A stretch of 64,000 nucleotides of DNA, from assembly GCA_024690825.1 (NCBI GenBank), contig JAILOK010000027.1, positions 15,377-79,376 on the forward strand. Reading direction: 5' to 3'. Below, in pieces: positions 2,209 to 48,675 of this stretch. The position numbers and the translations under genes were made by a program. Numbering within the stretch: position 1 is the stretch's first letter; each line of letters opens with the position of its first letter. This stretch comes from Lachnospiraceae bacterium (GTDB lineage: Bacteria > Bacillota > Clostridia > Lachnospirales > Lachnospiraceae). A model generated the notes under the pieces. The model saw nothing but the letters and a program-made list of their open reading frames with translations. It was not told the DNA's origin and ran no database searches.

Positions 2209-2228
2209 AACCTCCTTAAGATAAATTT

Positions 2229-2257: not shown

Positions 2258-2267
2258 TAAAAATCTT

Positions 2268-25711: not shown

Positions 25712-26809
25712 TTAATTTTTTTGATGTGCAAGTACAGACAGAAATCTGTTGATCAGCAGTATCATCACAGAAACATATATCAGGAAACATACGACGATGA
25801 CGACATAACTGACATAACCGCGGGCTCTGGTGACAAACTTGTTTACAAACATTGCGGCGTACAAAGATGCGATCCAGACAGCGGGGTTATTGTGAACAGC
25901 CATGAAAAGAAGCGAATTCCTGCCCCAGAACCGCGTGACCGGAAACGCCTTACCGCTCTTTGAAAGCGACATCACCATCCTGCACATCAGGATAATAAAA
26001 CCGGATCCCGCCACGGCGCCGATGTAATACAGCAGATAATTGTTAAGAACAAGCGAACGCAGATCCGTCGGCGAATTGAACCTGACCACCGCAATATTGA
26101 CCGCAAAAAAGATTACAGCGGTAAGAAGATGACAGGGGGACGGTTCTGCTGACAACTTTTTGGAAAAAAGATGACAGCAGAACCGTCCCCCTGTCATCTC
26201 AAAAAGATATCCGATCGAAATAAATGAGCAGGCGATGACCGGACGCAGAAGCATCACGATGATCTCGTTAAGACGCACATATACTGCCGGATTTTCCGGA
26301 ATGTATCCGCGGATCTCATTTACCCCCAGAGCCGCCATGGTCATGATGAGAACCGCGATCCACCTTTTCTTTCCGTCAAACTTTTTCATGATGAGAGCAA
26401 AGATCATCTCGGCAATAAACAGTGCAGGGAGAAACCACAGTACATTGATGCCGTAGAGACTTACGGCGTACCACAGCTGCACGAACATATCGGTTATGTT
26501 CATCGAATGACTGATAAAGACTCCGTAGAGGATGATCAGAAAATAGATCACGGTAAAAAGATAATAAGGGACCATGATCGTAGAGAATCTCTTTTTGAAA
26601 AAGTCCTTCATAGGGGGTATCTCGCCCTTCGCCGCAAAGAGCATTCCCGATATGATGAAAAACATCGGCATGTGAAAAGAAAAGATCCATTTACAGAACC
26701 CCTGAATATGGGGAGAAAGCGCAAAGATCGTATCATTTTGAAGGTGCCCGCATAATACGAGCACCATTCCTATACCTTTTGCAAGATCAATATAAGCTAC
26801 ACGTTTCAT
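25712..26809 (-). CDS. Acyltransferase-3 (OafA-like) membrane O-acyltransferase containing an in-frame REP-like element
   Basis: YIDLAKGIGMVLVLCGH, IFSFHMPMFFIISG, VLWFLPALF, WGRNSLLFMAVH. Confidence 0.88.
   Translation of the reverse strand: MKRVAYIDLAKGIGMVLVLCGHLQNDTIFALSPHIQGFCKWIFSFHMPMFFIISGMLFAAKGEIPPMKDFFKKRFSTIMVPYYLFTVIYFLIILYGVFISHSMNITDMFVQLWYAVSLYGINVLWFLPALFIAEMIFALIMKKFDGKKRWIAVLIMTMAALGVNEIRGYIPENPAVYVRLNEIIVMLLRPVIACSFISIGYLFEMTGGRFCCHLFSKKLSAEPSPCHLLTAVIFFAVNIAVVRFNSPTDLRSLVLNNYLLYYIGAVAGSGFIILMCRMVMSLSKSGKAFPVTRFWGRNSLLFMAVHNNPAVWIASLYAAMFVNKFVTRARGYVSYVVIVVCFLIYVSVMILLINRFLSVLAHQKN
26127..26199. repeat. REP-like repeat, locus 4, inside a coding sequence
   Basis: Perfect 25-bp IR AGATGACAGGGGGACGGTTCTGCTG / CAGCAGAACCGTCCCCCTGTCATCT; translated as MTGGRFCCHLFSKKLSAEPSPCHL. 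Confidence 0.9.
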
Positions 26810-26814
26810 AAATA

Positions 26815-29800
26815 CTACTCAGCCTGAGCCACATCAAACTTTCTTTTTATCTTACCGGTAAACCGTGTTCCGGTTCCGACGATCGTAACTGTTCCCTTCT
26901 TCGGACCTACCTGCTTGAAGGTTCCCCACACCACATAGTAGTCGCCTGCTTCATTGCCGGATACATCCTTCGGCTTCAGGACCTCCTTCGTCTCTTTGTC
27001 AGCCCTTGTCCATACCACCTTTATCATGCTGTCATCATACTGCCCGTCAGGTCTGTAGGGCACGGGCTGTTCAATGCCGTCTTCCTCATTGACAAACACC
27101 TCGACCGGCGTTTTGTCCTTATTATACTCCTGTACGCCTATGGTATATGTCAGATCATATCTGCCGTAATATTTTCCGGTGCCTTCAACCCTGATCCTGT
27201 ACCTGCCGGCCCTGTTGTTTGAGAGCGCGGAGCCGTCGATCCTGTAGCCCTCTTCCGCAAGCGTCGAAAGATCATCTATCGTTGTTTCATTCTGATAGAT
27301 ATAAAGCCTGATGCCTTCCGTGCCTTTATTTTCGATCCGGTTTGAAAGCTTAAGCGTCAGATCGGTGTATTCATCCCCGCTTGAGAAATTGAAACTCTTT
27401 TTCTTCAGCGTGATGTCATCACACTTAAGCTTCGTGCCGCCGTAGGTCACCTTTACATATGCAGGCTCGAACACATAGTATTTCATCTTCAGACTTTCAT
27501 CCGAAAACTGCACTTTCAGATAATAAATACCAGAGTTCAGCGCTTCCGGGGTAAGCTCGCTCTTCGCATATACTTTCGCGGTGCATTCGTCCTTCCCGTC
27601 TACGAGATCAACGCTGATCGAACCACCGCTGCCGTCCTTATCCACATCCTGATAGGTGTATTTCTTCTCCGAAGTCTTTGCATAGAACTTATCCGGATCA
27701 AGGAATGCGGCGATCCCGGCTTCCTCTTCCGACATGGGATAAACGACCTTTTTATAGGTTCCTCCGACAGTCATCTTTTTCGAGGTCTTCGGAATTCCAT
27801 AGAAGAATATGCCTTCGCTTTCTCCTTCTCCCTCGTATTTGAAAGGATCCTGGGTCCTGCCGCTGATATTGGGATTGCTGCCGTTTGATGTCAGCACGAC
27901 CGTATACCTGCTGAAGGAATCCGTGGTCTTAAACTTCTTTGCCGTTACATCCTTTCCGTCCTCGTCATAGATCGATATATCATAGGCGGATGAAGGTATG
28001 GTCTTTCCGGCATTCACGCCGCTTAAATAGCTTGCCTTAACCTTGGGCTTTAAGACCTTTCCGTTATATTTGATATACTGCGTTGTCACGGCAACATCCG
28101 CCGCGTAGGCAAGGTCTGCGGGAAGTATCACAAAGTATACCTTGATCTTCATTTCGGAATAAATACCCTTGCCGGTAACGATGACGGTCGGTCTGTTTTC
28201 ACTGTCCATGTTGCCTGCGTTCTTATTATTTTTGTAGGTAAGGGTATAATCGGTACCGAAGGAAAGCCTGTTGCCGCCGTCCTCAACGCGGATGTCTAGG
28301 GTGGGACTGTAGCCGCTCTTGGGGAGTCCCTTTGAGTAATACCTGGTGTCGTCCTTTGCCACATATTTGTTGCCGTTATAGACAACGGGCATTAAAGCCT
28401 TCACTGTAAGGCTGGCATTGTTATCGCTTGCGCTGACTTCCTCTGTAAATATCTCAAACAGCGTATATTTTGCTCCGTCTTTTTTGATCTTTTCCACAAA
28501 AGTTTGTCTGTCAAAGGTAAATTTTGTTCCCTTTTCATCCCTTGTGGGCTCGCTGTAGATACCGATATCGGCAGCGTTCATCATTTCTTCTTTATAGCAC
28601 TGTTCAAGCTGGTCATACACGACCTGTTTGACACACCAGACCGCGCCCTTTGTTGACTGCTTGTTCGAGAAGCTGTATATGGTAAGGGGAGTCGTATCCT
28701 CCGCCCTTCTTATCTTCGTCGGAGCGATCTCCTTTTCCATTGAAGGATCCCTGAATTCAAGGATGAGCGAGGGTTCCACATTGTAGGTGACCCAGGGCTT
28801 CTCCATGAGTTCATAGTTGCTTTCCTTATCATCATTGGGATCTGACTTAAGTTTTCCCAGATCCTTAAGCTGCGCTTTGTAGCCGGAATATTTTCTTGCA
28901 TTGGATATGCCGGTAAGGTCAATGACGGAGGATGAGGAATCAAACCAGTCCTGGATCGGAACATTTTCTCCCGACACAACCGTCACTTTGCTCATCTTTC
29001 CGCTCTCATCTGCCCTGTATACGCTTATAAGCCCGTAATATCTTTCCGTCAGTTCATCTCCGACAAGTGAACTTACGGCCTTGGATGCGGTAACATATAC
29101 AGGCATGCGCAGAATGGCAAAATCCGTCGAAGCGTTCTTTTCAAGGCAGTCAACGCTTACCGAAATCTCAGTTCCCGCGCTCATCTTTGAGCAGTCAAAC
29201 GAATCTGACGGAGTGTTTGCGCCGTTCCAGTAGAAAAGTGCGCCGGAAGACTTTGTCAGTTCCTTCTTTGTGCTTCCGTGTATGAAATACAATGTGAAAT
29301 AATCATAAACATTGTCTATCTTATCCGAATAAAAGACATCCTTTTTCTGTACCAAAGACAGGCTGTCCTTTTCCTTTATCTCCTCCACGGTATACCTAAG
29401 GAGCTGGGTTATTGATACGACTGAAGCATTCAGGATCCTGTAACGCCCTGTTTTATCCACTCCGTTCACGCTGATGTTAAATCCTGTATCCGTCTTTGCA
29501 GCTATATAATAAGTACCTGCATCGTTACAGGACAGATTGACATCAACGGGCTTCTCATTCTGTCCCGCGTCATTAGTGCTCACATAGGCAGTTCCGGTCA
29601 CGACGGCATCGGTGATCTCGTTTCCGTTCTTATCAAAAAGCGCGGTCGTCAATCCGGCCTGCTTTAAGCTCTGTCCCTTCAATACCATTCCAAGGGCAAG
29701 CGCAGGGCGTATATAGGCATCCTCCTGCTCATGGATCTCATAATATGTGCCGTTTTTTTCCGCATAATAACCGTCTTTAATGCAGTTCATATCCGGTTTT

Positions 29801-31350
29801 GTATTAAAAGATCCTCCGGTAATGTTGACATTATCCTTTATGACACCGGTATCATAGGCTGCGCTTACCGCCATTGCCTGTCCGTTTTTATTATTGGGAA
29901 CCGAGGTGAACTTTCCTCCGCTGATGTCGACCTTCATATGGGTCCTCTGCAGCGCAGGATCCGTACTTCTGTGATTCACATATAACCCAAACAGGCCGGA
30001 AAAGGTTCCTCCCTTTATGGTCAGGCTGCTGTGCTCCGTTTCATATGATGTGTGCTGGGTATAGGGAGAGTAACCGATGCCGCATCCGACAGTCGTGGAA
30101 CCGTTTGCGATATAGCTCAGATTCAGATTGTCTATAAAGGTGTTGTCCGATATGCATGACACCACTGCGTTCTCGATCACTGTGATACCGTTGCTGACCT
30201 CGATACCCGTAGATCCGGTAAAGTTACCGCCGTTTATCGTAAGATTTCCGAAACCCGCATGATAGATCGCAGTTCCTTCATTATCCAAGGCCTTGAAGGT
30301 TCCGCCGTTTATGGTAAATTTTGTTCCGAAAGACCAGGGCTCGCCGTAGTTCTGGAAACATGTACTCCTTGTAGTTATATTTACGGTGTCATCTTCGACT
30401 ATTACCTCGGCTCCGTTTCCTATGGCATACATTCCCATGTAACCGTCGGTTATCTTAAGTCCCGATCTGATTACAGCCTTTGAATTGTAAGGCTCCTTGA
30501 CATCAAATTTTTTTCCGGAAGGGACAGCTGCGACATTTCCGACGACCATTATGGCCTTGCCGCACGCCTCAAGGGCAGATTTATGCTCATCGCAGTCGAT
30601 ATAGGCCGCTATCGAGATCTTTTCCGCGGTAAGCTCAGCCTTGTCCCAGACTGCTACGACAGAATCCGAGGCTTCCGTATTGTTTACGATCGAACCGGGG
30701 GTTTCCGATGAATCGGTGAGGGTAAGCTTCGTCCCCTCTCCGTGAGCAGAGATCAGAAACTCGTTTTCCATATTTTTGGATCCGCCCATATTGATGGCCG
30801 TATTAAGGGCTGTAATTGCCTCTCCCGTACCGCCTATGCCATGACCGTTAAGATCTATCATGATATTTTTCCCGCCGTCTATGTCCACAGCCGTGCCGGT
30901 AAGGGTTATATCTCCCGTCAGAGTGATCTTTGCAGCCGCAGATGCGGGAGCTGCTGCAACAGCGCTCATAAGGGCAGCTGCCGAAGATACCGTAACCTCG
31001 GCTCCTGCTGCTTCTTCCGGTGCAGTTTCTCCCTCTTCTTCAACAGGAAGCGTCTCGTCTTCCGAAACACTCTCGCCGGGTTCATTATCCGATGCAGAGG
31101 ATTCGGGCTGTTTTTCTTCCGGGATCACGGGAGCAGTCTCGTCTCCGGAAGGAGTTGTCTCATCTTCCGGTCTTGTTTCATCCGGCGCCTCAGTGCTCGG
31201 CTCGGATACGGCAGGCATCTCTATACCCGCTCCCGCTCCCGGCATCACCGGCGTATCTTTTACCTCATCCGCATAAACGCTGCAGGTCATTGACATGACC
31301 ATTGCAATGATGAGCAGTATCGACAGCTGTTTCCTGAACCTTTTCCTCAT
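26815..31350 (-). CDS. 1511-aa secreted/surface protein: signal peptide, acidic P/E-rich linker, beta-helix-like region, Ig-like repeats
   Basis: MRKRFRKQLSILLIIAMVMSMTCSVYADE signal; repeated xITGGxF strands; repeats such as DYTLTYKNNKNAG...VTGKGIY, VEGTGKYYG and TIVGTGTRFTG. Confidence 0.8.
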   Translation of the reverse strand: MRKRFRKQLSILLIIAMVMSMTCSVYADEVKDTPVMPGAGAGIEMPAVSEPSTEAPDETRPEDETTPSGDETAPVIPEEKQPESSASDNEPGESVSEDETLPVEEEGETAPEEAAGAEVTVSSAAALMSAVAAAPASAAAKITLTGDITLTGTAVDIDGGKNIMIDLNGHGIGGTGEAITALNTAINMGGSKNMENEFLISAHGEGTKLTLTDSSETPGSIVNNTEASDSVVAVWDKAELTAEKISIAAYIDCDEHKSALEACGKAIMVVGNVAAVPSGKKFDVKEPYNSKAVIRSGLKITDGYMGMYAIGNGAEVIVEDDTVNITTRSTCFQNYGEPWSFGTKFTINGGTFKALDNEGTAIYHAGFGNLTINGGNFTGSTGIEVSNGITVIENAVVSCISDNTFIDNLNLSYIANGSTTVGCGIGYSPYTQHTSYETEHSSLTIKGGTFSGLFGLYVNHRSTDPALQRTHMKVDISGGKFTSVPNNKNGQAMAVSAAYDTGVIKDNVNITGGSFNTKPDMNCIKDGYYAEKNGTYYEIHEQEDAYIRPALALGMVLKGQSLKQAGLTTALFDKNGNEITDAVVTGTAYVSTNDAGQNEKPVDVNLSCNDAGTYYIAAKTDTGFNISVNGVDKTGRYRILNASVVSITQLLRYTVEEIKEKDSLSLVQKKDVFYSDKIDNVYDYFTLYFIHGSTKKELTKSSGALFYWNGANTPSDSFDCSKMSAGTEISVSVDCLEKNASTDFAILRMPVYVTASKAVSSLVGDELTERYYGLISVYRADESGKMSKVTVVSGENVPIQDWFDSSSSVIDLTGISNARKYSGYKAQLKDLGKLKSDPNDDKESNYELMEKPWVTYNVEPSLILEFRDPSMEKEIAPTKIRRAEDTTPLTIYSFSNKQSTKGAVWCVKQVVYDQLEQCYKEEMMNAADIGIYSEPTRDEKGTKFTFDRQTFVEKIKKDGAKYTLFEIFTEEVSASDNNASLTVKALMPVVYNGNKYVAKDDTRYYSKGLPKSGYSPTLDIRVEDGGNRLSFGTDYTLTYKNNKNAGNMDSENRPTVIVTGKGIYSEMKIKVYFVILPADLAYAADVAVTTQYIKYNGKVLKPKVKASYLSGVNAGKTIPSSAYDISIYDEDGKDVTAKKFKTTDSFSRYTVVLTSNGSNPNISGRTQDPFKYEGEGESEGIFFYGIPKTSKKMTVGGTYKKVVYPMSEEEAGIAAFLDPDKFYAKTSEKKYTYQDVDKDGSGGSISVDLVDGKDECTAKVYAKSELTPEALNSGIYYLKVQFSDESLKMKYYVFEPAYVKVTYGGTKLKCDDITLKKKSFNFSSGDEYTDLTLKLSNRIENKGTEGIRLYIYQNETTIDDLSTLAEEGYRIDGSALSNNRAGRYRIRVEGTGKYYGRYDLTYTIGVQEYNKDKTPVEVFVNEEDGIEQPVPYRPDGQYDDSMIKVVWTRADKETKEVLKPKDVSGNEAGDYYVVWGTFKQVGPKKGTVTIVGTGTRFTGKIKRKFDVAQAE

Positions 31351-31438: not shown

Positions 31439-31497
31439 AAAGGCGGGGCGAAAACACCCCACCTTTGATACTACTCCAGGTAAACTCTTTATGTCAA
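31439..31497 (-). promoter_or_regulatory. Promoter and leader hairpin of the large surface protein gene
   Basis: TTGACA(31497-92)-N18-TAGTAT(31473-68), immediately followed by AAAGGTGGGG/CCCCGCCTTT (31466-31439) and ACCTGTTTTT. Confidence 0.55.
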
Positions 31498-31525: not shown

Positions 31526-34174
31526 TCACTGCATATCTGTTCCCAGCTGCAGGCATTCCCAGTTTGCGGGATCAAAGATATTGTCATGCACGGAAAGCCA
31601 CGATATCATCTCATCGTCATAGACCGTATCTTTTTCGGTATCCACCTCAATCTTCGTTCTGACGATAACAAGCGGTCCCTCGCTCTTTCTGTCGTTATTG
31701 ACGGGATTTCCCGTAAAGGGATTGACCGGATCTTTTATTACATCCTTCATGGCTATAGTCGGCACATCGGCGTTGCACATAAATGTGTCATCCGTGACGA
31801 CTCCCTCGTGATCCGAATCGAAATCCTTTACCAGAAGCACGGGGTTGACGGCCTCGACATCGATCGGTATATCTTCAAAATACATATAAGGGAACTGACC
31901 CATTCCGAAACCGTGGTCGGCCGTGATGATTATTCTGGTATTATCGTAAACGCCCAAATCTCTTAAGGTATCCAGCCAGTCACCAAGCTTCATCATGGCG
32001 GCCATGTCCGCGTCATAGTGCTCCTCCTGGATCGTATGGGTTATCTTCATCGTCTTCCCGTCTGGAAGCGTGCGCTTTTCGGGAGTTTCCGCAAGCCTTA
32101 CCGTCGAATCGGGCTCATAATCCGGAGGATTGAGCGAAGTGTTTTCGTGCGCCGCATCATTTTCGATCATAATAAGCTCGCCCTTGCTGTCATCCGAAAC
32201 CTCAGTAAGCTCGGGCATCAGGCGCAGGAATGACAGACAGGTGATGAAACGGTACTTCAGGCCGTTATTTGTGATCGAAAGATAATTGCCCTCATCATAA
32301 AGTGTCTCCTGCGTGAAAAGAGGCATAGAACGGAAGAGGCTGTAGAAAAAGAAGTTCCTCTTCTGCTGCTCGAGTTCTATGCATGCCCTCTCCTTTTCGG
32401 TGAGATAATCATTGTATTCACCGTTTGATGTGCGGTAGGCATCGCAGTCGGGGACATTGTCAAATATGCGCGATCCGTTTATGAAGGAATTTTCAAGGTC
32501 CGCAAGCGGCAGGTCGCATACCGTGGAATGATACCCTTCTTTTCCAAATAATAAAGGCATGAGCTTTAAGGCTTCGTTCTGCTTGTCCTTTAAGAGCACA
32601 TCATCTCTTTTATTGGATTCGGCCAGCGCATACTCATATCCGCCAAATAGCGCGGCAGACGCATTTATTGTTTCCGTCCCCGTGGAGACCGTATTGGGAT
32701 AAAATGTAAATCCCTCAAACTTCTTTTCAAGCTCCGGTTTTTCCTGGAAAAGATACGGAATATAAGCCCCTATGGACCGGTCAAGCATGATGACCACCAC
32801 ATTTTTTCCCTTTGAGGAAAACTTAAGGATCTTATTATTTATATCCGCAGGCTCGACTCCGGCCGCCTTGCCGTTTTTGGCGTTTGCAAAGATATGCGAG
32901 GACCTGACGGTCTTTTCGATCGAGACCGCATTATATACGGAAAAGATCATCTCGCAGACGATCAGGATGCCCAGAAGGCTGAATACATATTTCTTTCCCT
33001 TTTTGAAAAAGGCCGTCAGTACAACAGCCGTGGTAGCGATGAACAGTACATTGAAGATCCTGTTCACATATCCGTAGGAAGGATATCTGTCGTAGATGAG
33101 CGTATAGGAAATGATCCCGAACTGCCCGGAAAAAAACATGTGGTTGATGATGAACACAACCGAGCAGCACAGAGCCGCAAGGCTTATAAACTTCCTCAAA
33201 CGGGGCCCCGAAAGGAAGAAAATGACCGCGCCCCACAAAATAAAGACGCCCGATGCTATGGCAAAGGAAAGAAGCGCATATCTTACCGGATCCGGATAGA
33301 TCAGGTTTTCCGCAAAATCAAGGGGCGAAGCATCAATGACCGACAGCGGTATGGCAAGACCCGTAAAAAGCGAAAGCAGCACCGCCGAGAGTGCCCAGAG
33401 CTTTGTGACATCGCTGTCCTTTTTGGGGGAGCCGGAAACGCTTCTTTGAACGGCTTCAGCCTCAGACGGCAGATCATCTCCCGCCTCCTTCGTCTGTTTC
33501 TTTTTGTTGATCATATCCATGACAATGTTCTTTCCGAGGGAAAAAACATTATTGAGCGTCCAGTAAAATACAAGTCCCGCAGGCGATCTGTATAGCAGCA
33601 CCAGAAATACCAGGGCAAAAGCCACGGTCTGGATCTTTTCCTTCTTTGTTCCGCCTTTCGTATAGATGGCCGCGGAAGTCAGATTGATCGCCGTCATAAG
33701 GATGGGAAGCAGGTTAATGTGCAGGCCTCCTATGGGGATCAGTCCGTCGGGACTTCCCAGATCCTGTATCATCAGGAAGGATGCGCCCTTTAACAGCGTG
33801 AGATTTGAAAGAAAATCATAGGCCGCGATAAAGAAAGGAACCTGCAGAAGCAGGGAAAGTGAGCTCTTTAACACATACCAGGGCTGGTAATCATTCTGCC
33901 TGTAGTATTCGGACAGGATCATGAACCGCTCATCGCCCTTAAAGGTGCGCCGTATCTCCTTAACCCAGTGCTCCATGTCCTTCTGCTTTTTGCGCTCCTC
34001 TGCCTGCATCGCATCGGACCGAAGATACATCGGCAGAACCAGGATATTCATCACAAGACTTACCGAGAGAATGGATATCCCGGGGTTCGTGAAAAGATGA
34101 TAGCTGACCCTGAAGATGATCTCAAAGAGAAACCATATCGGTTTTATTGCAAGATAATATAAGAATTCGCCCAT
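31526..34174 (-). CDS. Fusion: YidC/Oxa1-like domain, additional TM bundle, alkaline-phosphatase/sulfatase-superfamily domain
   Basis: About aa 1-220 YidC-like (ILVLP, LLLQVPFF, LPILM, PAGLVFYWTLNNVFS). C-terminal NVVVIMLDR, YPNTVSTGTET, NTRIIITADHG and NADVP are LtaS/EptA/sulfatase-like. Confidence 0.85.
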   Translation of the reverse strand: MGEFLYYLAIKPIWFLFEIIFRVSYHLFTNPGISILSVSLVMNILVLPMYLRSDAMQAEERKKQKDMEHWVKEIRRTFKGDERFMILSEYYRQNDYQPWYVLKSSLSLLLQVPFFIAAYDFLSNLTLLKGASFLMIQDLGSPDGLIPIGGLHINLLPILMTAINLTSAAIYTKGGTKKEKIQTVAFALVFLVLLYRSPAGLVFYWTLNNVFSLGKNIVMDMINKKKQTKEAGDDLPSEAEAVQRSVSGSPKKDSDVTKLWALSAVLLSLFTGLAIPLSVIDASPLDFAENLIYPDPVRYALLSFAIASGVFILWGAVIFFLSGPRLRKFISLAALCCSVVFIINHMFFSGQFGIISYTLIYDRYPSYGYVNRIFNVLFIATTAVVLTAFFKKGKKYVFSLLGILIVCEMIFSVYNAVSIEKTVRSSHIFANAKNGKAAGVEPADINNKILKFSSKGKNVVVIMLDRSIGAYIPYLFQEKPELEKKFEGFTFYPNTVSTGTETINASAALFGGYEYALAESNKRDDVLLKDKQNEALKLMPLLFGKEGYHSTVCDLPLADLENSFINGSRIFDNVPDCDAYRTSNGEYNDYLTEKERACIELEQQKRNFFFYSLFRSMPLFTQETLYDEGNYLSITNNGLKYRFITCLSFLRLMPELTEVSDDSKGELIMIENDAAHENTSLNPPDYEPDSTVRLAETPEKRTLPDGKTMKITHTIQEEHYDADMAAMMKLGDWLDTLRDLGVYDNTRIIITADHGFGMGQFPYMYFEDIPIDVEAVNPVLLVKDFDSDHEGVVTDDTFMCNADVPTIAMKDVIKDPVNPFTGNPVNNDRKSEGPLVIVRTKIEVDTEKDTVYDDEMISWLSVHDNIFDPANWECLQLGTDMQ

Positions 34175-34189: not shown

Positions 34190-35701
34190 TTAGTTAACAT
34201 AAAATAATACAAATTCTTTCAGGACCGTCACGCCCCATCCCTGATTTGTGAATGCGTCTACAAGGTCGGGACGCTCGTATTGGTCTACGGCATATATGTG
34301 ATCGGGAGAATAATCGATATCTCCTTCGGGATTTACTTCGACATTGTTAAAGGAAAAGCTGCTCGCATCTGAAAACTGCCTGTAATCGGCAGGGGATGCC
34401 GCGCCGTAAAGCGCAATCAAAAGATTTCTGCCTTCAAATTCCCCGGTATAGACAGTGACCGTTTTTTCCGGATACATCTTCAATGCGGCCTTGACCGCCT
34501 CTCCCGCGCTCTTGTCGACTATATTTCCGTTTTCGTGGTCGCTGCTGTGATTAAGCTCGGAGTTGTAATTTACCAGATAGTAATGCGTAAGGATGCAAAA
34601 TCCCACGATATATACCAGCACGATGACGGGCAGAGTGCCTTTGACATTATCTCCTATGTAAATGATCCCCTCCATGATGAGCATGGCAAGGGCAAAAAAG
34701 AGACCGCAGGCAGTGCTTAAACCTGCCTTTTTTATGATAAGGCATACCGGAAGGCCCGCGATGACAAAGCACCAGGCCAATACCGAAGCATCAAAGGTTT
34801 TTGTTTTAACAGAGGTCAGGACTTTTTTGAAGGAAACGATGACTCCGGTAACAAGAAGCGGAAGCGAGAACACATACATCGTCCCAAAGTCCGGTATGAC
34901 ATTGAAATCATGTCCGTCATCCCAGAACATCTTCTTAAATCTGGTAAGGTTTTTAAGGATGCCCGCCGGATTCACATCAAGCTTAAGTCCGGATATCACG
35001 ATCAATACGGCGCATATAAGTACGGGTACGCATAATAAAACCGCATCTCGTATCCTGATCTTTTTTACAAAAAAGAGATACGCGCAGACGATCAGCGCAA
35101 ACAAAGGAATAATTATGCAGCCGGGCCTCCAGGTAAGGACTGCCGCCGAAAACAGGATCCCAGATAATAAGAACAGCAGGGCCTTCGACTTTTTTATTGC
35201 CGCAAGCAGAAAGAAAAATGCCGCGGGGAGGATCGAAAGCACCAGGAAATTCTCAAGGAAATTTCTCTGGCTTATGAAAAATATCGGAAGCGACAGAACA
35301 AGTCCCGCCGCAACAAATCCGTCCTTCTTTTTTCCCGTCCACTGCCAGACGAAAAGATAGGAAAAGATCATCGCAAAAAATCCGCCTGCCGCGGAAATGA
35401 GCCTGAAAAGCTTCATCGAAAACAAAGCCGGACGAAGCTTCATCAGAAGCGCCCCGGCCCATATGAAAAGAGGGCTGTGTCCGTCACCGAATCCGCCGAA
35501 AAAAAGAGAAGGCGCAGCCCCTGTGCTGTCAGTCCCGAACCTTGCGATGCAAAGCGATTCATAAGCCTGTTCCAGTTCTTTCGTATGGAGATAATAAGGG
35601 ATCTCTCCTGCCATAAATACCCTGCTGAATAAATAACCGGCCAGGAGTATGAGAAGAAATACCGGATTATATTTTTCGAAGATCTCTCCCGCTTTTTTCA
35701 T
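34190..35701 (-). CDS. GT39/ArnT-like (GT-C) membrane glycosyltransferase
   Basis: First-loop PYYLHTKELEQAYES (degenerate DE motif), GHSPLFIW, about 12 TM segments. Start MKKAGE at 35701 after AAAGGTGG. Confidence 0.65.
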   Translation of the reverse strand: MKKAGEIFEKYNPVFLLILLAGYLFSRVFMAGEIPYYLHTKELEQAYESLCIARFGTDSTGAAPSLFFGGFGDGHSPLFIWAGALLMKLRPALFSMKLFRLISAAGGFFAMIFSYLFVWQWTGKKKDGFVAAGLVLSLPIFFISQRNFLENFLVLSILPAAFFFLLAAIKKSKALLFLLSGILFSAAVLTWRPGCIIIPLFALIVCAYLFFVKKIRIRDAVLLCVPVLICAVLIVISGLKLDVNPAGILKNLTRFKKMFWDDGHDFNVIPDFGTMYVFSLPLLVTGVIVSFKKVLTSVKTKTFDASVLAWCFVIAGLPVCLIIKKAGLSTACGLFFALAMLIMEGIIYIGDNVKGTLPVIVLVYIVGFCILTHYYLVNYNSELNHSSDHENGNIVDKSAGEAVKAALKMYPEKTVTVYTGEFEGRNLLIALYGAASPADYRQFSDASSFSFNNVEVNPEGDIDYSPDHIYAVDQYERPDLVDAFTNQGWGVTVLKEFVLFYVN

Positions 35702-35732
35702 ATTATGTAAACCACCTTTGCATGGATTAATT

Positions 35733-36857
35733 TTATGTAAACTGTTCAAGGTGTCTCATGAAGTTTTCTTTGTTTTCCAGCGCTGTCGTAGTGGGACGCC
35801 CGAGATCCGGTCTTGCTCCGACCTGACATTTAACCTCAATGAACGAAAGCTCTCCGGCATCTTTTGCACTCTTTAATTCACTGTCAAGGCTGTCCATATC
35901 GGACACACTGACCGCCCTTTTATAACCGCAGGCCTTTGCTATCGACACAAGGTCAACGGATCCCGCAACGGTCGGCATGCCTCCCACGGTCTCATGCGCT
36001 CCGTTATTTATCACTATGTGTATGAGATTTGAAGGAGCATTTGTTCCGATGACTGCCATGGCTCCCATATGCATGAGCGCCGCTCCGTCACCGTCTATGC
36101 ACCAGACCCTCACTCCGGGTTTATTAAGCGCAACACCCAAAGCGATCGATGAGCAGTGTCCCATGGAACCCACAGTCAGAAAATCCGTTCCGTGGTCCAT
36201 TCCCTTTTCGGTACGGTATTCAAAAAGCTCACGGCTTATCTTTCCCGTCGTTGAGATGACAGGATCAGAGCCTGTCACGGCTGCTATATGCTTTATGACC
36301 TCTTCGCGGTTGAGGCTGTAGTTATTATCATATTTTACCTTCCCGTCAAAGCTTAAGCCGCCCTCCCGTATAATAAAAGCGGCCTGCTTTCCCTTTGCAA
36401 GCTCTTTTCTGAAGGTTTCCATGGCTTTATTCACTTCCTCATCCGTGGTGTCCTTTCCGATGACGAAGGTCTTCACATCCATATCCTGCATGAGCTTTTC
36501 GGTGACGATGCCCTGGTAGATGTGCTGGGGCTCGTCGTGAATACCCGGTTCGCCTCTCCAGCCTATGATGAATACCACCGGTATGGCATAAACCTTGTCA
36601 TTTACCAGTGAAGCAAGAGGGTTTATTATATTTCCCTCACCGCTGTTCTGCATGTATACCACGGGAACCTTCCCTGTGGCCAGATGATATCCCGCTGCCA
36701 GTGCCAGACAGTTTCCTTCGTTTGCGGCTATGATGTGATGGTTCTTATCTATACCGTATTTATCCATCAGGAAATTGCACAGCGCTTTAAGCCTGCTGTC
36801 GGGAACTCCCGAATAAAATTCCGATCCTATGATTTCAAATAATTTTTCCGTTTTCAT
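35733..36857 (-). CDS. aepY: Phosphonopyruvate decarboxylase
   Basis: YSGVPDS, AANEGN, YMQNSGEGN, DEPQH, VGSMGH, ThDP motif IDGDGAALMHMG...NN. Confidence 0.95.
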   Translation of the reverse strand: MKTEKLFEIIGSEFYSGVPDSRLKALCNFLMDKYGIDKNHHIIAANEGNCLALAAGYHLATGKVPVVYMQNSGEGNIINPLASLVNDKVYAIPVVFIIGWRGEPGIHDEPQHIYQGIVTEKLMQDMDVKTFVIGKDTTDEEVNKAMETFRKELAKGKQAAFIIREGGLSFDGKVKYDNNYSLNREEVIKHIAAVTGSDPVISTTGKISRELFEYRTEKGMDHGTDFLTVGSMGHCSSIALGVALNKPGVRVWCIDGDGAALMHMGAMAVIGTNAPSNLIHIVINNGAHETVGGMPTVAGSVDLVSIAKACGYKRAVSVSDMDSLDSELKSAKDAGELSFIEVKCQVGARPDLGRPTTTALENKENFMRHLEQFT

Positions 36858-36901
36858 ATGTTTTTCCTTCAATATTTGTGAGCCGCTTTACTGTCACCTT
36901 T

Positions 36902-38203
36902 TTATCCCATGGCAGGCTGCGGTGTATCCTCAGAGACTGTATCATCACCGGAGCCCGCAAGTTCATCATGCTTTTTTACAAGATAGTCAACCGTAAGTTT
37001 TGCGGCTTCCCCGGGATTTGACCAGGTTTCGGCGCGGGCCTTGTCACGGCCTGCCGCAAGTGTCTCGTCGTTTACCGTCCTGTCGATCACTTCTTTGATA
37101 TTGTCGAAATCTTCTTCCTTTAACGGGATACCGATCTTGGGCAGGATCCTTAAGGTCCACATATCTTCCTCAAGCCAGGCGGCATCATAGGCCGATTTGT
37201 CAAATTCGATGTCGGCATAGATGAAGGGCCTGTCAAAGATCAGGGCATAATCAAACATGACGCCGGAGAAATCCGTGATCATGATATCGGCGCTCTTTAA
37301 CACATCAAAATTGTCATTATCCCTGTTCCAGTGAAGCTTTTCGCTTTCGGGAAATTTCGCCTGAAGTGAATCCATCATCTCCTTTTCGGATGTAAAGGAT
37401 TGCGGATGAGGGCGGATGATTATATTATATCCTGTTTTGATAAGGGCTTTTATTATCTTCTCGCCGAACCTTTTAAGGATCGCGGTATCGCCCCAGGTAG
37501 GCGCAAGGAGAACTGTCTTTGTGCCGTCTGAAGCATGATCTGACGGTGCTTCGCCTTTTACCGAATCATCATATCTTTTCTTCATGGTATCAAGGTAGGT
37601 GATGCCTGTCATGAAGGTTTCGCGCCTGTTGATGTTTCTTAAGGCCTCGATATCACGGAGCTGCTTTTCCTCATATTCTCCGGAGATCAGCACCGCATCG
37701 TAATGATCGAGTCCGAACATCCTGTAAAAGGTTGTGTCTCCGGGCTGATGAAGGATATGGACATACCAGTTCACATTCTTTGACCTTTTCCACTGAAGCA
37801 CGTCAAGACCCGGAGTCGTGGCCAGCACCACGCCCGCATTCATGATATTGAGTTTTGAAAAGGCCTTGTTGCCCTCCCCGATAAACGATGCCTTAACATG
37901 AGAATACTCCGTCTTCAGGGCAGGATCATCCTCCGACATCGTCCAGTACTCGACATCGATCCCGCGTTTTTCAAATTCATCGCAGACGGGTTTGAAAACA
38001 TTCCAGTATCTTTTGCTGTCGGAAAAGATCACATATGGGATTTTTTCTGTATCGGCTGCCTGCGCCTTGCCTCCCGATAAGACAAATTTCAACTTCAGTT
38101 TGAGCTTCTGAAAAACAAAATACCCGGCAGAAACTGCTCCTATCAGTATGGTAAAGAGCATGCTTCCCGTTCCGGGATCTATGTACAAAAGTATAGGGTT
38201 CAT
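36902..38203 (-). CDS. CDP-glycerol glycerophosphotransferase (TagB/TagF-like) family protein with N-terminal anchor
   Basis: YIDPGTGS N-terminal TM; LLAPTWG, IRPHPQ, DIMITDFSGVMFDYA. Confidence 0.85.
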   Translation of the reverse strand: MNPILLYIDPGTGSMLFTILIGAVSAGYFVFQKLKLKLKFVLSGGKAQAADTEKIPYVIFSDSKRYWNVFKPVCDEFEKRGIDVEYWTMSEDDPALKTEYSHVKASFIGEGNKAFSKLNIMNAGVVLATTPGLDVLQWKRSKNVNWYVHILHQPGDTTFYRMFGLDHYDAVLISGEYEEKQLRDIEALRNINRRETFMTGITYLDTMKKRYDDSVKGEAPSDHASDGTKTVLLAPTWGDTAILKRFGEKIIKALIKTGYNIIIRPHPQSFTSEKEMMDSLQAKFPESEKLHWNRDNDNFDVLKSADIMITDFSGVMFDYALIFDRPFIYADIEFDKSAYDAAWLEEDMWTLRILPKIGIPLKEEDFDNIKEVIDRTVNDETLAAGRDKARAETWSNPGEAAKLTVDYLVKKHDELAGSGDDTVSEDTPQPAMG

Positions 38204-38212: not shown

Positions 38213-38950
38213 TTATTGTATTTGGTTTACATAATTTTCATCAAAGGCTGCCAGTTCTTCGACGCTGTCGATCTCGGTGATCTGGTCATTCTTTACCGGA
38301 TGTATGACGAGTTTAAGCCTGTCAAGATTTTCATTGACCACATCATCCCAGTAGACATCTTCATGTCCGGGCTTTGAATACCTGTCGTCAATGGCATCCG
38401 CAAGGATCACGGAGTCCTCTTCGGTAAAATATGAAATGCCGCACATATTATAGCAGTTATCTCCGACTTTTCCCACCCGGGTGATGAATCCTTTTTCATC
38501 AAGGTCAAATACCCAGTCATCGGAGTGACCCTCTATGAACTTTCCGAAGTAACAGGAATCATTCAGATCCGCAAGAAAGATCGACGGATCTGACACAAAA
38601 AGATCGGCCTCACAGATAAATACACGCTTTCCGCGCAGGATATCCGTGACCGCCTTTATTGACGAGATATTGTTCACTATCTCGTAGTCTTTATTTTTTA
38701 CGAGGGATAAACCCGGATATTTGGATGCAAGATAGGAAAACTGCTCTCCCAGATAACCCGTGACAACATAGATCTCATCTATCCCACGGCCTCTCAGTCC
38801 GTTTATCACGGTCTCTGCCATGGGGATGCCCTTTACCCTGATCAGGGGTTTCGGGGTATTTTCGGTCAGGGGACGCATCCTTGTCCCCATTCCCGCAGCC
38901 ATCAGGACCGCAATTTCCTTATTTTTTATCTGTTCTTCCGCAACGATCAT
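38213..38950 (-). CDS. LicC/PntC-like phosphocholine/phosphonate cytidylyltransferase
   Basis: LMAAGMGTRMRPLTENTPKPL, VVTGYL, NNISS, EADL, ITEIDSVEEL; ATGA overlap with pepM. Confidence 0.88.
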   Translation of the reverse strand: MIVAEEQIKNKEIAVLMAAGMGTRMRPLTENTPKPLIRVKGIPMAETVINGLRGRGIDEIYVVTGYLGEQFSYLASKYPGLSLVKNKDYEIVNNISSIKAVTDILRGKRVFICEADLFVSDPSIFLADLNDSCYFGKFIEGHSDDWVFDLDEKGFITRVGKVGDNCYNMCGISYFTEEDSVILADAIDDRYSKPGHEDVYWDDVVNENLDRLKLVIHPVKNDQITEIDSVEELAAFDENYVNQIQ

Positions 38951-40242
38951 AACTCGTCTATCAGTGTTATTATTTCCTTGAAGGGCATCAGATGCGAATC
39001 CGCTTCCATTGCCCTGTGATTTGTAAGTATCTCTACGGCAGTCTGCTTCATGGCCGGGAATGCCGCCCTCATCAGCTGGTTTGCGTATATAACGATATTT
39101 ACGCCGTGACGGCTCAGTTCTTCTTCCGTTACGCTGTTGAAGGAAGTGGGCACCACAACGATCGGGGTTGTCTTGTCCTTTTCCCTGAACTTATCGCAGA
39201 ATTCAAAGATCTCCGCCGGATCCTTTTTGCGGCTGTGTATCATTATCCCGTCTGCGCCTGCCTCCTTAAAGGCAAAGGCACGCGTCAGGGCATCTTCCAT
39301 GCCGCGTTCCAATATCAGGGATTCGATGCGCGCGATGATCATGAAATCATCCGTAAGCTGCGCCCTCTTTCCTGCGGCTATCTTTGCCGAGAAGTTTTCT
39401 ATGGAATCCTGGGTCTGGACGACCTCGGTACCGAAAAGAGAATTCTTTTTCAGCCCCGTCTTGTCCTCTATGATGACTGCCGAAACACCCATTCTTTCCA
39501 GGGTACGGACATTATATACAAAATGCTCCGTAAGTCCGCCTGTATCACCGTCAAGGATTATGGGCTTTGTGGTCACCTCGAGGATATCGCTGATGGTACG
39601 AAGACGCGAGGTCATATCCACAAGTTCGATGTCAGGCTTTCCCCTGTCGGTGCTGTCGCACAGGGATGAAACCCACATGCCGTCGAACTGGTCGAGCTTC
39701 CCGTCCTTTTCCACTATGGTCTTTTCGGTGATAAGGCCGGTAAGTCCGCTGTGCGCCTCCATGATCTTTACTATGGGACAGATCTCGATGAGCTGTCTTA
39801 AACGCTTCCTTCTGTATTCGGGCATGGCCAGCTTTTCCTTTAACCGCCGGTCGGCCTTGGATACATTTTCATTGTAGGTATAGCCGATCTCTACAAGCTC
39901 TCCGCCGTATTTCTTCAGAGCCTCCAGACAATTCTCCCTCAGCGCCTTCTCCGGCCCGTCCTTCCAGTTATCGCCGTGGATGACTATGTCGGGCTTCAGC
40001 GTACTTATTATGCCGTCATAAGTCATGTCATCCTGAACTACCACCTCGTCGACGCCTTCAAGCGATTTATAGAGCGCTATCCTTTCATCGATCGATATCG
40101 TGGGAAATCTGTTATAGCGTATGAGCGCACTGTCGGACAGCGCCCCGATGGTGACGCTTCCAAGCTTTGCTGCTTCCTTTATTATATTCAGATGACCTTC
40201 ATGAATGATGTCAGTCGTAAAACAGGTGTATACTTTTTTCAA
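38947..40242 (-). CDS. pepM: Phosphoenolpyruvate mutase fused to an N-terminal cytidylyltransferase-like domain
   Basis: TDIIHEGH (HxGH) N-domain; diagnostic EDKTGLKKNS (EDKxxxxxNS); ARIES, DGIMIHS, YANQLMRA. Confidence 0.96.
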   Translation of the reverse strand: MKKVYTCFTTDIIHEGHLNIIKEAAKLGSVTIGALSDSALIRYNRFPTISIDERIALYKSLEGVDEVVVQDDMTYDGIISTLKPDIVIHGDNWKDGPEKALRENCLEALKKYGGELVEIGYTYNENVSKADRRLKEKLAMPEYRRKRLRQLIEICPIVKIMEAHSGLTGLITEKTIVEKDGKLDQFDGMWVSSLCDSTDRGKPDIELVDMTSRLRTISDILEVTTKPIILDGDTGGLTEHFVYNVRTLERMGVSAVIIEDKTGLKKNSLFGTEVVQTQDSIENFSAKIAAGKRAQLTDDFMIIARIESLILERGMEDALTRAFAFKEAGADGIMIHSRKKDPAEIFEFCDKFREKDKTTPIVVVPTSFNSVTEEELSRHGVNIVIYANQLMRAAFPAMKQTAVEILTNHRAMEADSHLMPFKEIITLIDEL

Positions 40243-40338: not shown

Positions 40339-41466
40339 TTAATTATATTTCAGCGGTACACTGACGCCCGCATCTTTGAGCGCTTCCTTGAAAACCTTCC
40401 AGAAATCACGGATGTCGCCTTCATCTATTGCTCCAAGAGCGCAGAGCCTGAAGGTTCCCTGTCCCGCTATCTTTCCGGGATAGATGGTAAATCCCCTTTC
40501 ATAGCAGAAGTCATGGACCTTCTCAAAATCCCAGTTCGGATCATCCGGATAGATGAGGGCAGCAACAAGTCCCGACTGGACATCGCGGCTTAAAGCCTCC
40601 TTAAAGCCAAGTTCATCAATGCCCTCCCTTATGGCATTCATGACACGGGTATGTCTCTCCCACTTTGCCTTTTCACCCTCCTCATAATACTCGATCAAAG
40701 CCTGCTTCGCGGCATAGATCGTCTGTACCGGAGGAGTGAAGTGCATCTCGCCGGTCTTTTCAAAATATTCATACTGCATATACAGATTGCAATAATAAGA
40801 GCGTTTAGGGAAATCCTTTGACTTTTCTATGATATCGCGCCTTCCTATGATGTATGAAAGGCCCGTCATGCCCATGATACCCTTCTGCGCCGAAGCCATG
40901 CAGAAATCAATGTTCTCATCATATACATTTATAGGGATCATCGCATAGGCGCTGGTGGTGTCAGTTATAAGAAATGCGCCGTATTTATGTGCCAAGTCGC
41001 CTATCTCCTTAACCGGATTTAAAAGTCCTGTCCCGGTCTCGTGATAGGTGACATATACATATCCTATATCCTTATTTTCTTTCAGTGTTTCTTCTATTTT
41101 CTGAAGATCCGGCTTTTCATCGAGCGGCTGTTTCAATTCAATATGCGGCAGATCATAGTATCTGCACACATCGCAGGCTCTTTCGGAATAAGCTCCGTTG
41201 TTTATGATAAGAGCCTTTTTATCCCTGTCGAGCAGCGAATTCAAGGCAATATCTATGCATATCGTCCCCGAACCGCAGAACAGCACAGCCGTGTATTCCT
41301 TCGTATCCGCATGAACGATGCGTACCAGATCATCTCGCATGGGTGCCATGATACCTGCAAATTCCTTTTCCCTCGGGCAGATATCCGGAACCACCTGGGC
41401 CATCTTGACGGTATCCGTCGTAGTCGACGGACCGGGATTCAGCAGTATATTCCGTTTAATGTCCAT
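40339..41466 (-). CDS. aepZ: 2-aminoethylphosphonate transaminase (AepZ/PhnW family, PLP-dependent)
   Basis: ILLNPGP, YHETGTGLLN, TDTTSAY, SAQKG, FTPPVQ, TIYPGK. Start MDIKR at 41466 after GGAGG. Confidence 0.92.
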   Translation of the reverse strand: MDIKRNILLNPGPSTTTDTVKMAQVVPDICPREKEFAGIMAPMRDDLVRIVHADTKEYTAVLFCGSGTICIDIALNSLLDRDKKALIINNGAYSERACDVCRYYDLPHIELKQPLDEKPDLQKIEETLKENKDIGYVYVTYHETGTGLLNPVKEIGDLAHKYGAFLITDTTSAYAMIPINVYDENIDFCMASAQKGIMGMTGLSYIIGRRDIIEKSKDFPKRSYYCNLYMQYEYFEKTGEMHFTPPVQTIYAAKQALIEYYEEGEKAKWERHTRVMNAIREGIDELGFKEALSRDVQSGLVAALIYPDDPNWDFEKVHDFCYERGFTIYPGKIAGQGTFRLCALGAIDEGDIRDFWKVFKEALKDAGVSVPLKYN

Positions 41467-41522
41467 TTTTTCATATCCTCCTGCACTGCCCATAAGTTTA
41501 CATCAGATACACATGTCATGTC

Positions 41523-46585: not shown

Positions 46586-46610
46586 ATTTTTGTATCCTCC
46601 GTTAAAATTT

Positions 46611-47363
46611 TTATCCCTTAAGCGGAACTTCAAAAACCTTCATGTCATCAAGTCTGATGAAAAGCGCGCCGGTCTTTATTGTACTGCTGTACCCCACGGC
46701 GCAGCCTCCGTCTATATCGATAAAGTTTCCTTTTTTGTAGATCTTCAGATCATTGTACTCATAATCTCCCAGGAAATTCTGCATGATATATCCCACCGGC
46801 ACATGACCGGTGATAAAGGTGTAATCATATTTTTTGTAAATATCGCTGCCTTTTGTCTCTCCATGCCTGTATACCGAGGTCCATACTATATTCCATACCG
46901 CAGCATATTCCAGCTCATGATATTTTTTGTTCTCATATTTTGGAACATAGTAAGAGTGAGTCAGGCAGAAATCCTTACCGCCAACATTGATGGTCTTTAT
47001 CACATACCGGTCCCGCAGCCACTCAAGAAGTGCGATCCTGTCTTTTTCCTTAAGTCCTGTATATTTTTCAAAAGTTATCCTGCCGCCGTTATAATAAAGC
47101 CAAAGATCGGTATCAGCCCCGCTGCACTTATTCTTTCCGTCCGGATCAACAGAGTTTAACATCATGAATTCATGATTACCGATGAGAAGGTCCATGTTCT
47201 CATGACTCATTACATATCGAAGTATCTCTATGCCGCCTTCTCCCCTGTCCACAGCATCTCCCAGAACATACAGCATATCCGTATCCTTAAGGCCGATCCT
47301 TTTGATGCCCTCGATAAAAGCGTCATATTGTCCGTGCAGATCCGAAACCGCATATACCGACAT
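46611..47363 (-). CDS. Calcineurin-like metallophosphoesterase (lambda-PP/PphA-like Ser/Thr phosphatase family)
   Basis: SDLHG, LGDAVDRG, GNHE, THS, TGHVP, DIDGGC. Confidence 0.9.
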   Translation of the reverse strand: MSVYAVSDLHGQYDAFIEGIKRIGLKDTDMLYVLGDAVDRGEGGIEILRYVMSHENMDLLIGNHEFMMLNSVDPDGKNKCSGADTDLWLYYNGGRITFEKYTGLKEKDRIALLEWLRDRYVIKTINVGGKDFCLTHSYYVPKYENKKYHELEYAAVWNIVWTSVYRHGETKGSDIYKKYDYTFITGHVPVGYIMQNFLGDYEYNDLKIYKKGNFIDIDGGCAVGYSSTIKTGALFIRLDDMKVFEVPLKG

Positions 47364-48605: not shown

Positions 48606-48675
48606 ATTTTTTCTCCTCAGGCGATATGATGTCACGAATCACTTCTTTCGTCAATCGATCGCCGCCGTCTGCTTA

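Follow-up and report, generated by a model that had tools for sequence, protein, structure and literature searches.

A YidC/Oxa1-sulfatase fusion protein encoded beside a TagF-like gene as a candidate module for cell-surface decoration in gut bacteria

We examined an open reading frame (ORF) of 882 amino acids, located at positions 31526-34174 on the minus strand of a 64,000 nucleotide stretch of DNA from a Lachnospiraceae bacterium (contig JAILOK010000027.1 of assembly GCA_024690825.1, positions 15,377 to 79,376), which in its full length is here called the window. The ORF fuses a YidC/Oxa1-like membrane module to a domain with the alkaline-phosphatase/sulfatase fold, and it is paired with a gene for a TagF-like phosphotransferase predicted to use cytidine diphosphate (CDP)-activated alcohols. 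We propose, with a probability of about 0.5, a surface-decoration module of 2 genes which has swappable cargo and operates as a relay, with the fusion protein as its outward-facing half. The module looks like a general machine for the decoration of cell surfaces and not like one that is specific for phosphonates.

The gene context of the fusion was studied in 2 sets of loci. The first set was seeded with the fusion and comprised 80 loci with flanks of 10 kb on either side, which were searched by tblastn with the proteins encoded in the window. The second, reciprocal set comprised 79 loci from an independent metagenome collection and was seeded from an alignment of the TagF-like partners; 52 of these loci had usable flanks. 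A homolog of the TagF-like gene, with 47% to 81% identity, was present at 59 of the 80 fusion loci, nearly always within less than 250 bp and on the same strand, and 8 of the 21 loci that lacked the homolog were truncated on one side. Conversely, the fusion was located at most 1 kb from the TagF-like gene at 49 of the 52 informative loci in the reciprocal set. The fusion and the TagF-like gene are thus obligately paired, and according to a clustering of the neighboring genes this pair is the only element that is widely conserved; no conserved flippase gene was found among the neighbors. An earlier note on this DNA had suggested that the fusion should co-occur with both pepM and TagF-like genes, of which the tie to the TagF-like gene was confirmed and that to pepM was not, since pepM was absent near about 94% of the fusion loci. 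A single alternative partner at the loci without the TagF-like gene was considered and rejected, as the neighbors at these loci were heterogeneous (GT2, ABC, CotH, DUF6625, and alanine racemase). It was also noted that a membrane protein of the Rce1-like CAAX-protease family was encoded between the TagF-like gene and the fusion at 3 loci (L011:9262-10020, L013, and L030).

The genes that surround the pair fall into different cargo cassettes, which were assigned from the Pfam annotation of recurrent neighbor clusters and from precomputed contexts. Among the 80 fusion-seeded loci, 17 contained a choline-type cassette, 8 a fusion of a nucleotidyltransferase to an aminotransferase, 5 PepM, 4 a radical-SAM cassette, and 2 a TagD cassette, and the PepM-type and choline-type cassettes did not overlap at any locus. 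The choline-type cassette consists of a LicA-like choline/ethanolamine kinase, transporters of the EamA or BCCT families and a LicC-like transferase, whereas LicD itself was identified at only 3 of the 80 loci. The TagD cassette is represented by a CTP_transf_like gene for 131 amino acids, of the size and family of TagD, beside MBOAT and YfhO genes in the complete genome CP175961.1. The NTP_transferase-class I/II aminotransferase fusion of about 600 amino acids, found at 8 of 80 and 6 of 79 loci in the 2 sets (for example L082:4946-6745, L084:12269-14092, and L078:14495-16303), may activate an amino-alcohol phosphate. Finally, a B12-binding radical-SAM/DUF4080 enzyme and a sodium:solute symporter (SSF) were encoded beside the module at L020, L045, L048, and L063, which suggests yet another head-group cargo.

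In the window and in its closest relatives, the fusion gene lies inside a complete operon for the synthesis of 2-aminoethylphosphonate (AEP) and its activation with cytidine monophosphate (CMP), as would be expected if the protein had evolved as a dedicated exporter or transferase for AEP decoration. However, phosphoenolpyruvate (PEP) mutase was encoded at only 5 of the 80 fusion-seeded loci and at 3 to 6 of the 79 TagF-seeded loci, the decarboxylase of the pathway was likewise found at 5 of the 80 loci, and most members with a recognizable cassette were of the choline type. Furthermore, in a tree of the catalytic domain, which was star-like, the AEP-linked members occupied at least 4 distinct positions, and this suggests that cassettes have been exchanged. 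Dedication to phosphonates is thereby largely refuted for the family as a whole, and we regard it as very improbable. The view of the earlier note that the protein is an extracellular phosphonyl transferase therefore survives in part: the fold, the predicted outward topology and the AEP/CMP operon beside the TagF-like gene agree with it, but the specificity for phosphonates does not hold.

The fusion is widespread. When 5.8 billion proteins were searched and the best 120 matches were considered, all of these were full-length relatives of about 850 to 990 amino acids with 38% to 76% identity, which are labeled merely as "membrane protein insertase YidC" in the database. When the YidC module alone was used as the query in an exhaustive HMMER search, 981 clusters at 50% identity were identified with E-values of at most 1e-30; most of the best 150 matches were 840 to 1010 amino acids long, and the shorter ones probably originate from cut-off contigs. 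At least 570 places in species-representative genomes encode the fusion, mostly in Lachnospiraceae, Oscillospiraceae, Ruminococcaceae, and Acutalibacteraceae, with some in Atopobiaceae, Treponema, and Erysipelotrichaceae. The carriers include the cultured Lachnospiraceae bacterium C1.1, Butyrivibrio sp. MB2005, Acetatifactor aquisgranensis, and Hydrogeniiclostridium mannosilyticum. The sequencing runs that contained the gene in the window were gut metagenomes, several of them from ruminants. No description of the YidC-sulfatase architecture was found in the literature searched with terms for YidC, sulfatase, LtaS and teichoic acid, for TagF, CDP-choline and LicD, and for AEP and Lachnospiraceae.

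The copy number of the fusion varied, with tandem arrays of up to 6 copies per locus and 2 loci in one strain. The longest array, at about 7428-20242 in L065, contained 6 tandem paralogs with no TagF-like gene nearby, and tandem pairs were also observed in L020, L029, L057, L058, and L070. In L005:132-2568, 2 adjacent ORFs upstream of the fusion, of which the second matched Pfam Sulfatase, look like a further copy that has been split or frameshifted.

The architecture of the protein is in agreement with the earlier description of a YidC-like core, further transmembrane (TM) helices and an alkaline-phosphatase-superfamily domain within one ORF. The frame is uninterrupted, its coordinates were checked by translation, and the stop codon is located at 31526-31528. 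The YidC/Oxa1-like module (amino acids 1-222; 33509-34174; all features of the fusion and its operon are on the minus strand) was delimited by profile matches and by the helices in an AlphaFold2 (AF2) model, and consists of an amphipathic N-terminal helix, TM1, a cytoplasmic C1 hairpin, and TM2 to TM5. It is followed by a variable, lysine-rich cytoplasmic linker of low predicted local distance difference test (pLDDT) values (amino acids 223-255; 33410-33508), at the position of which some relatives contain extra inserted helices. A second membrane bundle of 5 helices (amino acids 256-424; 32903-33409) resembles the anchors of LtaS, EptA, and PbgA according to hydropathy, AF2 helices and Foldseek, and the C-terminal part (amino acids 449-882; 31529-32830) is the alkaline-phosphatase/sulfatase-fold catalytic domain, as identified by Pfam and Foldseek. 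The protein matched Pfam 60KD_IMP (PF02096) at amino acids 32-219 with 78 bits (cutoff 35) and Pfam Sulfatase (PF00884) at amino acids 457-760 with 37.8 bits (cutoff 25). The AF2 model, which was based on an alignment of 117 sequences, had a mean pLDDT of 89.8 and a predicted template modeling (pTM) score of 0.82, and the 10 hydrophobic helices seen both in the model and in the hydropathy profile fit a layout of 5 plus 5. Judged from the order of the helices and the charges of the loops, which follow a positive-inside pattern, the catalytic domain is predicted to be located outside the cell. The fusion is thus a new combination of known folds, and from this combination and the gene context we infer the mechanism that is set out below.

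The first module is clearly related to YidC. The profile of the fusion family matched E. coli YidC with an E-value of 3.7e-13 at positions 22-235, as well as the YidC proteins of Thermotoga and B. halodurans, and the AF2 helices of amino acids 1-222 fit the YidC core, including the cytoplasmic hairpin between core TM1 and TM2 (AF2 helices 31-77 and 81-93). The large periplasmic domain, the lack of which had been pointed out in the earlier note, is normally lacking in Gram-positive YidC proteins and is no peculiarity of the fusion. In comparisons of the query with distant members, the sequence identity was highest in the YidC module (59%), followed by the catalytic domain (43%), the second bundle (29%), and the linker (about 6%). 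The YidC module therefore ranks first in conservation and is not decaying. The C1 hairpin is unusually constrained, with 37% of the columns conserved at 90% or more.

The groove of the module differs from that of known insertases in its charge. When the single sequence and the family profile were each aligned by HMMER to the YidC proteins of E. coli and Thermotoga, Asn43 (codon 34046-34048) took the place of the arginine that is canonical in the groove (R366 in E. coli). The residue at this position was Asn in 101, Ser in 12, Gln in 3, and Gly in 1 of the 117 members, and never Arg or Lys, and the family alignment contained no conserved basic residue within the cores of the TM helices of the module. 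Position 111 (33842-33844), equivalent to E. coli Q429, is Gln in the window; among 90 members, 51 have Glu and 39 have Gln, with no clean correlation to the type of cargo. With the arginine lost and Glu common at position 111, the groove would be neutral or acidic instead of basic. Other polar groove positions, namely T161, N164, T206, and N208, were invariant or nearly so. The earlier suggestion that the groove arginine could be mutated falls away, and the idea that the module is a dedicated insertase is weakened by the absence of this residue throughout the family.

The database label implies that the protein is the ordinary YidC insertase of the organism, equipped with an accessory domain, and the clear Pfam match is in line with this name. 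The NCBIfam profiles tell otherwise: the score for yidC_oxa1_cterm (TIGR03592) was 83.5, marginally below the cutoff of 84.3, but the best-scoring YidC equivalog reached 76.8 bits where 479 are required, and the remaining ones likewise fell far short of their cutoffs. Housekeeping yidC genes are expected in the conserved rnpA-yidC-jag context, whereas the fusion gene resides in variable surface-polymer clusters. The groove arginine is reportedly needed for the insertase function of Gram-positive YidC and dispensable in E. coli (Kumazaki et al. 2014; Chen et al. 2014). Together with the tandem arrays of up to 6 copies and the 2 loci in one strain, its absence makes a housekeeping role unlikely, to the point that we find this explanation scarcely credible. 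No second YidC was found in the window.

The partner is encoded at 36902-38203 and was assigned to the TagF-like CDP-alcohol phosphotransferases on the basis of a match to Pfam Glyphos_transf (PF04464) with 64 bits, its predicted fold and its motifs. The model of the partner had a pLDDT of 84 and TagF (3L7I) as its best fold match with an E-value of 6.7e-13, and the PTW, RPHP, and DFSG..FD motifs could be aligned with those in TagF and Cps3D. The score for the TarF equivalog was as low as 19.9 against a cutoff of 550, so the partner represents a distinct subfamily. Its N-terminus consists of an invariant YIDPGTGS motif (amino acids 7-14), a hydrophobic helix of about 20 residues and a stretch rich in Lys and Arg, which implies an N-out anchor with a single span. 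The motif was present in the partners at L001 to L164, and to our knowledge an invariant motif of this kind followed by a helix is not a feature of TagF or TarF. The motif is specific enough to recover the partner family when used as a search pattern.

Since an N-out topology with a single span is typical of substrates that depend on YidC only, the YidC module might be an assembly device that inserts or docks the anchor of the partner, and perhaps its own second bundle, thereby building a complex across the membrane. The sulfatase domain would still transfer head groups, possibly from ordinary membrane lipids. The tail, helix and basic stretch of the partner, the strong conservation of the C1 hairpin and the obligate pairing of the 2 genes all speak for such a role. 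Yet the groove arginine is missing in all members, and fusions at loci without an adjacent TagF-like gene retain every hallmark residue of the YidC module; moreover, we know of no other LtaS/EptA-type enzyme that needs a private insertase. Assembly of this kind is in our opinion possible but rather unlikely as the explanation, and because it can coexist with a relay it may be either rival or complementary to it.

In the catalytic domain, 5 residues, D465, T502, H676, D753, and H754, were invariant in all of the 117 homologs. These include the residues that the earlier note had singled out as a candidate threonine nucleophile in the motif STGTET and as a metal-binding ADHG motif: STGTET corresponds to amino acids 497-502, with the last Thr, T502, as the conserved residue, and ADHG to amino acids 752-755. 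In the AF2 model, the candidate nucleophile Thr502 (codon 32669-32671) is the first residue of a helix (502-511) that follows a loop, the candidate metal ligands Asp753 and His754 (codons 31913-31918) follow a strand at 746-751, and Asp465 (codon 32780-32782) follows a strand at 458-464. Asp465 and His676 (codon 32147-32149) complete the candidate active-site set. As far as can be judged from the model, the 5 residues are placed as is canonical for active sites in the alkaline phosphatase superfamily, at strand ends and helix starts.

The top Foldseek matches were full-length PbgA/YejM, LtaP and full-length MCR-1, followed by phosphonate monoester hydrolases, sulfatases, and LtaS. The alignments covered about 700 columns with full-length PbgA/YejM and 649 with full-length MCR-1, at identities of only about 12% to 14%. 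Searches against the PDB, with a single sequence or the family profile, retrieved no LtaS, GacH, or EptA chains at an E-value of 0.01 or lower; the sequence matches were weak and were to sulfatases and phosphonate monoester hydrolases. The catalytic half is a separate clade of the superfamily that has the architecture of the lipid-using transferases. The presence of phosphonate monoester hydrolases and sulfatases among the top matches in both fold and sequence raises the alternative that the extracellular domain is a hydrolase, either a phosphodiesterase or a phosphonate monoester hydrolase, which trims or recycles head groups. But the nucleophile is a Thr and not a Cys or Ser converted to formylglycine, the domain is tethered to a bundle of 5 helices in the manner of the lipid-using transferases PbgA, LtaS, and MCR-1, and the gene is located in biosynthetic rather than catabolic operons, all of which make hydrolysis an improbable function.

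In the relay that we favor, the TagF-like enzyme at the cytoplasmic face would transfer a phospho- or phosphono-head group from its CDP- or CMP-activated form onto the hydroxyl of a membrane carrier, for which diacylglycerol, a glycolipid or a polyprenol are candidates. The polar YidC-like module that lacks the arginine could then pass the charged head group across the bilayer, in the way that insertase grooves act on lipids in vitro, and/or hold the N-terminal helix of the partner. The second helix bundle would present the loaded lipid to the extracellular domain, where Thr502 is predicted to attack the phosphorus, with metal bound by D465, D753, and H754, giving a covalent intermediate. The head group would finally be handed to a hydroxyl on a wall polymer or a surface protein, by a chemistry like that of LtaS, GacH, and EptA. 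The cargo in the window would be AEP, which has no free hydroxyl group, so that it could only serve as a terminal decoration and not as a unit of a polymer.

Several observations argue for the relay. The gene pair, the 2 domains with their catalytic set and the arrangement of the modules relative to each other in the AF2 model are consistent with it, as is the fact that the best fold matches were to the full-length, membrane-anchored PbgA, LtaP, and MCR-1, and as are the TagF fold, the TagF motifs and the invariant membrane anchor of the partner. The mutually exclusive cargo cassettes and the lack of a conserved flippase gene point in the same direction, and so does the YidC module, which is the most conserved part of the protein and keeps a polar groove but never the arginine. 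The idea of a conduit is supported by the finding that E. coli YidC, Oxa1, and Get1 scramble phospholipids in vitro (PMC11047089), and GacH provides an example of an enzyme with multiple TM helices and a Thr nucleophile that decorates a wall polysaccharide from a lipid donor (bioRxiv 10.1101/337519).

Other observations weigh against the relay. About 18% of the informative fusion loci have no adjacent TagF-like gene, and T502 could not be aligned by sequence to the nucleophile of a solved structure, for which only chance matches were obtained. The alignment columns that differ between AEP-linked and choline-linked members (W298/W867 in the choline type and R/F in the AEP type, as well as columns in the C1 hairpin) are confounded by phylogeny. 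The lipid carrier is hypothetical. By analogy with LicD, a lipid-linked glycan could instead be the direct acceptor of the TagF-type enzyme within the cytoplasm. According to the prevailing view, no dedicated protein is needed for bulk phospholipids to flip, and a private scramblase would perhaps be unnecessary. The more far-reaching proposal, that the YidC/Oxa1 fold has been repurposed from the insertion of proteins to the transmembrane carriage of a lipid-linked phospho- or phosphono-head group, fused to the enzyme that consumes it and coupled to a TagF-like loader, is put forward as a tentative one, with the odds against it.

The proposed system shares features with several known ones. Like LtaS, LtaP, and GacH, the fusion has a multi-helix anchor and an extracellular, metal-dependent domain with a Thr nucleophile, with fold matches to LtaP and LtaS, and these enzymes attach a small phospho-alcohol to a polymer at the surface, as the fusion would do. 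In contrast, the glycerol-phosphate that they transfer comes from bulk phosphatidylglycerol, they require no CDP-dependent partner and no YidC module, and LtaS and GacH gave no match at the sequence level in the PDB. The cargo of the fusion varies and is apparently supplied by a dedicated cytoplasmic CDP/CMP pathway. Five TM helices followed by a periplasmic domain with the sulfatase fold are also found in EptA/MCR-1 and PbgA (YejM), and EptA/MCR-1 transfer phosphoethanolamine, a close chemical analog of AEP. These are, however, Gram-negative lipid A enzymes that use bulk phosphatidylethanolamine, PbgA being non-catalytic, and they have no fused YidC or TagF partner. With the YidC/Oxa1 insertases of the SpoIIIJ/YidC2 type, the fusion shares the 5-helix core, the cytoplasmic hairpin and the polar groove (Q/E111, T161, N164, T206, and N208), but it has Asn, Ser, Gln, or Gly in place of the groove arginine and often Glu at the Q429-equivalent, and its module is fused to an enzyme, occurs in multiple copies and is linked to a cargo operon.

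The same cassettes as in the Lic and Pnt pathways, in which a head group is imported or made and then activated by a cytidylyltransferase of the LicC/PntC type (PMC6697681), are found here. In the Lic pathway the transfer is carried out by a single cytoplasmic enzyme, LicD, whereas LicD is rare at the fusion loci and replaced by the pair of TagF-like and YidC-sulfatase proteins. The proposed logic, with cytoplasmic loading of a lipid carrier, flipping, and transfer by an outward-facing enzyme, would be analogous to that of GtrABC, ArnC/EF/T, and CsbB-GtcA-YfhO. In these 3-component systems a small membrane protein flips the carrier and a transferase decorates the finished polymer. They handle sugars on undecaprenyl phosphate by means of GT-A, GtrA/SMR, and GT-C proteins, whereas the cargo of the fusion would be a phospho- or phosphono-alcohol, the enzymes have TagF and sulfatase folds, and the putative flippase of the YidC fold is fused to the final transferase.

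In the window, the pair is embedded in an operon that runs from a 2-aminoethylphosphonate aminotransferase (40339-41493; TIGR03301, 438.1 against a cutoff of 360.8) to the fusion as the last gene, with intergenic gaps of -17 to 96 nucleotides. The aminotransferase gene is followed by a fusion of a CTP_transf_like domain (PF01467) to PEP mutase (38947-40242; TIGR02320, 412.9 against a cutoff of 319.55), which contains the Ppm motif EDKTGLKKNS at amino acid 259, and by a LicC/PntC-like nucleotidyltransferase (38213-38950; NTP_transf_3, PF12804), identified by Pfam and presumed to be the AEP cytidylyltransferase. Downstream of the TagF-like gene are genes for phosphonopyruvate decarboxylase (35733-36872; TIGR03297, 458.4 against a cutoff of 312.5) and for a PMT_2-like membrane protein of the GT-C type (34190-35749), which is located 15 nucleotides upstream of the fusion and has a borderline Pfam score of 25.6 against a cutoff of 26.1. 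Homologs of the latter were identified in L001, L002, and L085, and a PMT_2 protein in L020. A strong terminator-like hairpin with a T-run (31439-31466; 12 pairs, 7 of which are G-C) is located 3' of the fusion in the gap of 175 nucleotides that precedes the next gene. With 3 AEP enzymes above their equivalog cutoffs, the short gaps and the hairpin after the stop codon, the earlier placement of the fusion at the end of a phosphonate operon is well founded. Matches to sigma-70-like promoters in the operon were not interpretable.

The operon contains the components by which Pnt clusters have been defined (PMC6697681), namely Ppm with the motif EDKxxxxxNS, Ppd, an AEP transaminase and nucleotidyltransferases of the PF12804 and PF01467 families, domains of which are often fused to Ppm (Rice et al. 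2019). PntC enzymes of the PF12804 family make CMP-AEP, and the steps beyond this activation were stated to be unknown in the same study of 2019 (PMC6697681). A genuine fusion combined with an AEP/CMP operon next to a TagF-like gene makes transfer of AEP to the cell surface plausible for the copy in the window.

The closest relative of the protein in the window, with 75% identity, is encoded at L085, where the AEP operon has the same synteny and a second copy of the fusion is located upstream. The fusion is co-directional and at the end of the operon in the window and L085, while it is inverted and placed between the TagF-like gene and the decarboxylase gene in L001 and L002 (10001-12592), from which we infer that the cluster has been rearranged recently. 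Directly downstream of the fusion in the window is a gene for a protein of 1511 amino acids (26815-31350, minus strand), which has a hydrophobic segment at its N-terminus and matched neither Pfam nor NCBIfam, followed by an Acyl_transf_3 gene (25712-26809, minus strand). The same trio, here an ORF of 1474 amino acids, Acyl_transf_3 and Rho, follows the fusion in L085. The 1511-amino acid protein may be a surface acceptor or be unrelated to the module.

Two additional ORFs on the minus strand between the genes for HtpG and an AAA ATPase, of 931 amino acids (43838-46633) and 395 amino acids (47448-48635), had no match in Pfam; the former also had no match in NCBIfam and none by tblastn in the 80 related loci. 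Genes of the CotH kinase family recurred near the module in unrelated genomes, at 6973-8511 (minus strand) in the window, at 1319-3607 and 7857-9863 in L081, and at 8305-9891 in L044.

The display of phosphocholine, glycerol-phosphate or phosphoethanolamine-like groups on bacterial surfaces shapes how bacteria are recognized by the immune system, how they resist cationic peptides and how phages adsorb to them. The module described here is a concrete candidate for the steps that follow CMP-AEP in Clostridia, and also for a LicD-independent route to phosphocholine in abundant gut and rumen bacteria. The labeling of about 1,000 protein clusters as just "YidC" hides a surface-decoration system and inflates the number of insertases counted. 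Provided that the YidC module does move the head groups of lipids, the scrambling of lipids that insertases perform in vitro would gain a physiological function. Should the fold indeed have been repurposed, this would be the first example in nature of an insertase groove selected for lipid scrambling, and it would supply the missing LicD-independent step after CMP-AEP by which Gram-positive gut bacteria decorate their surfaces.

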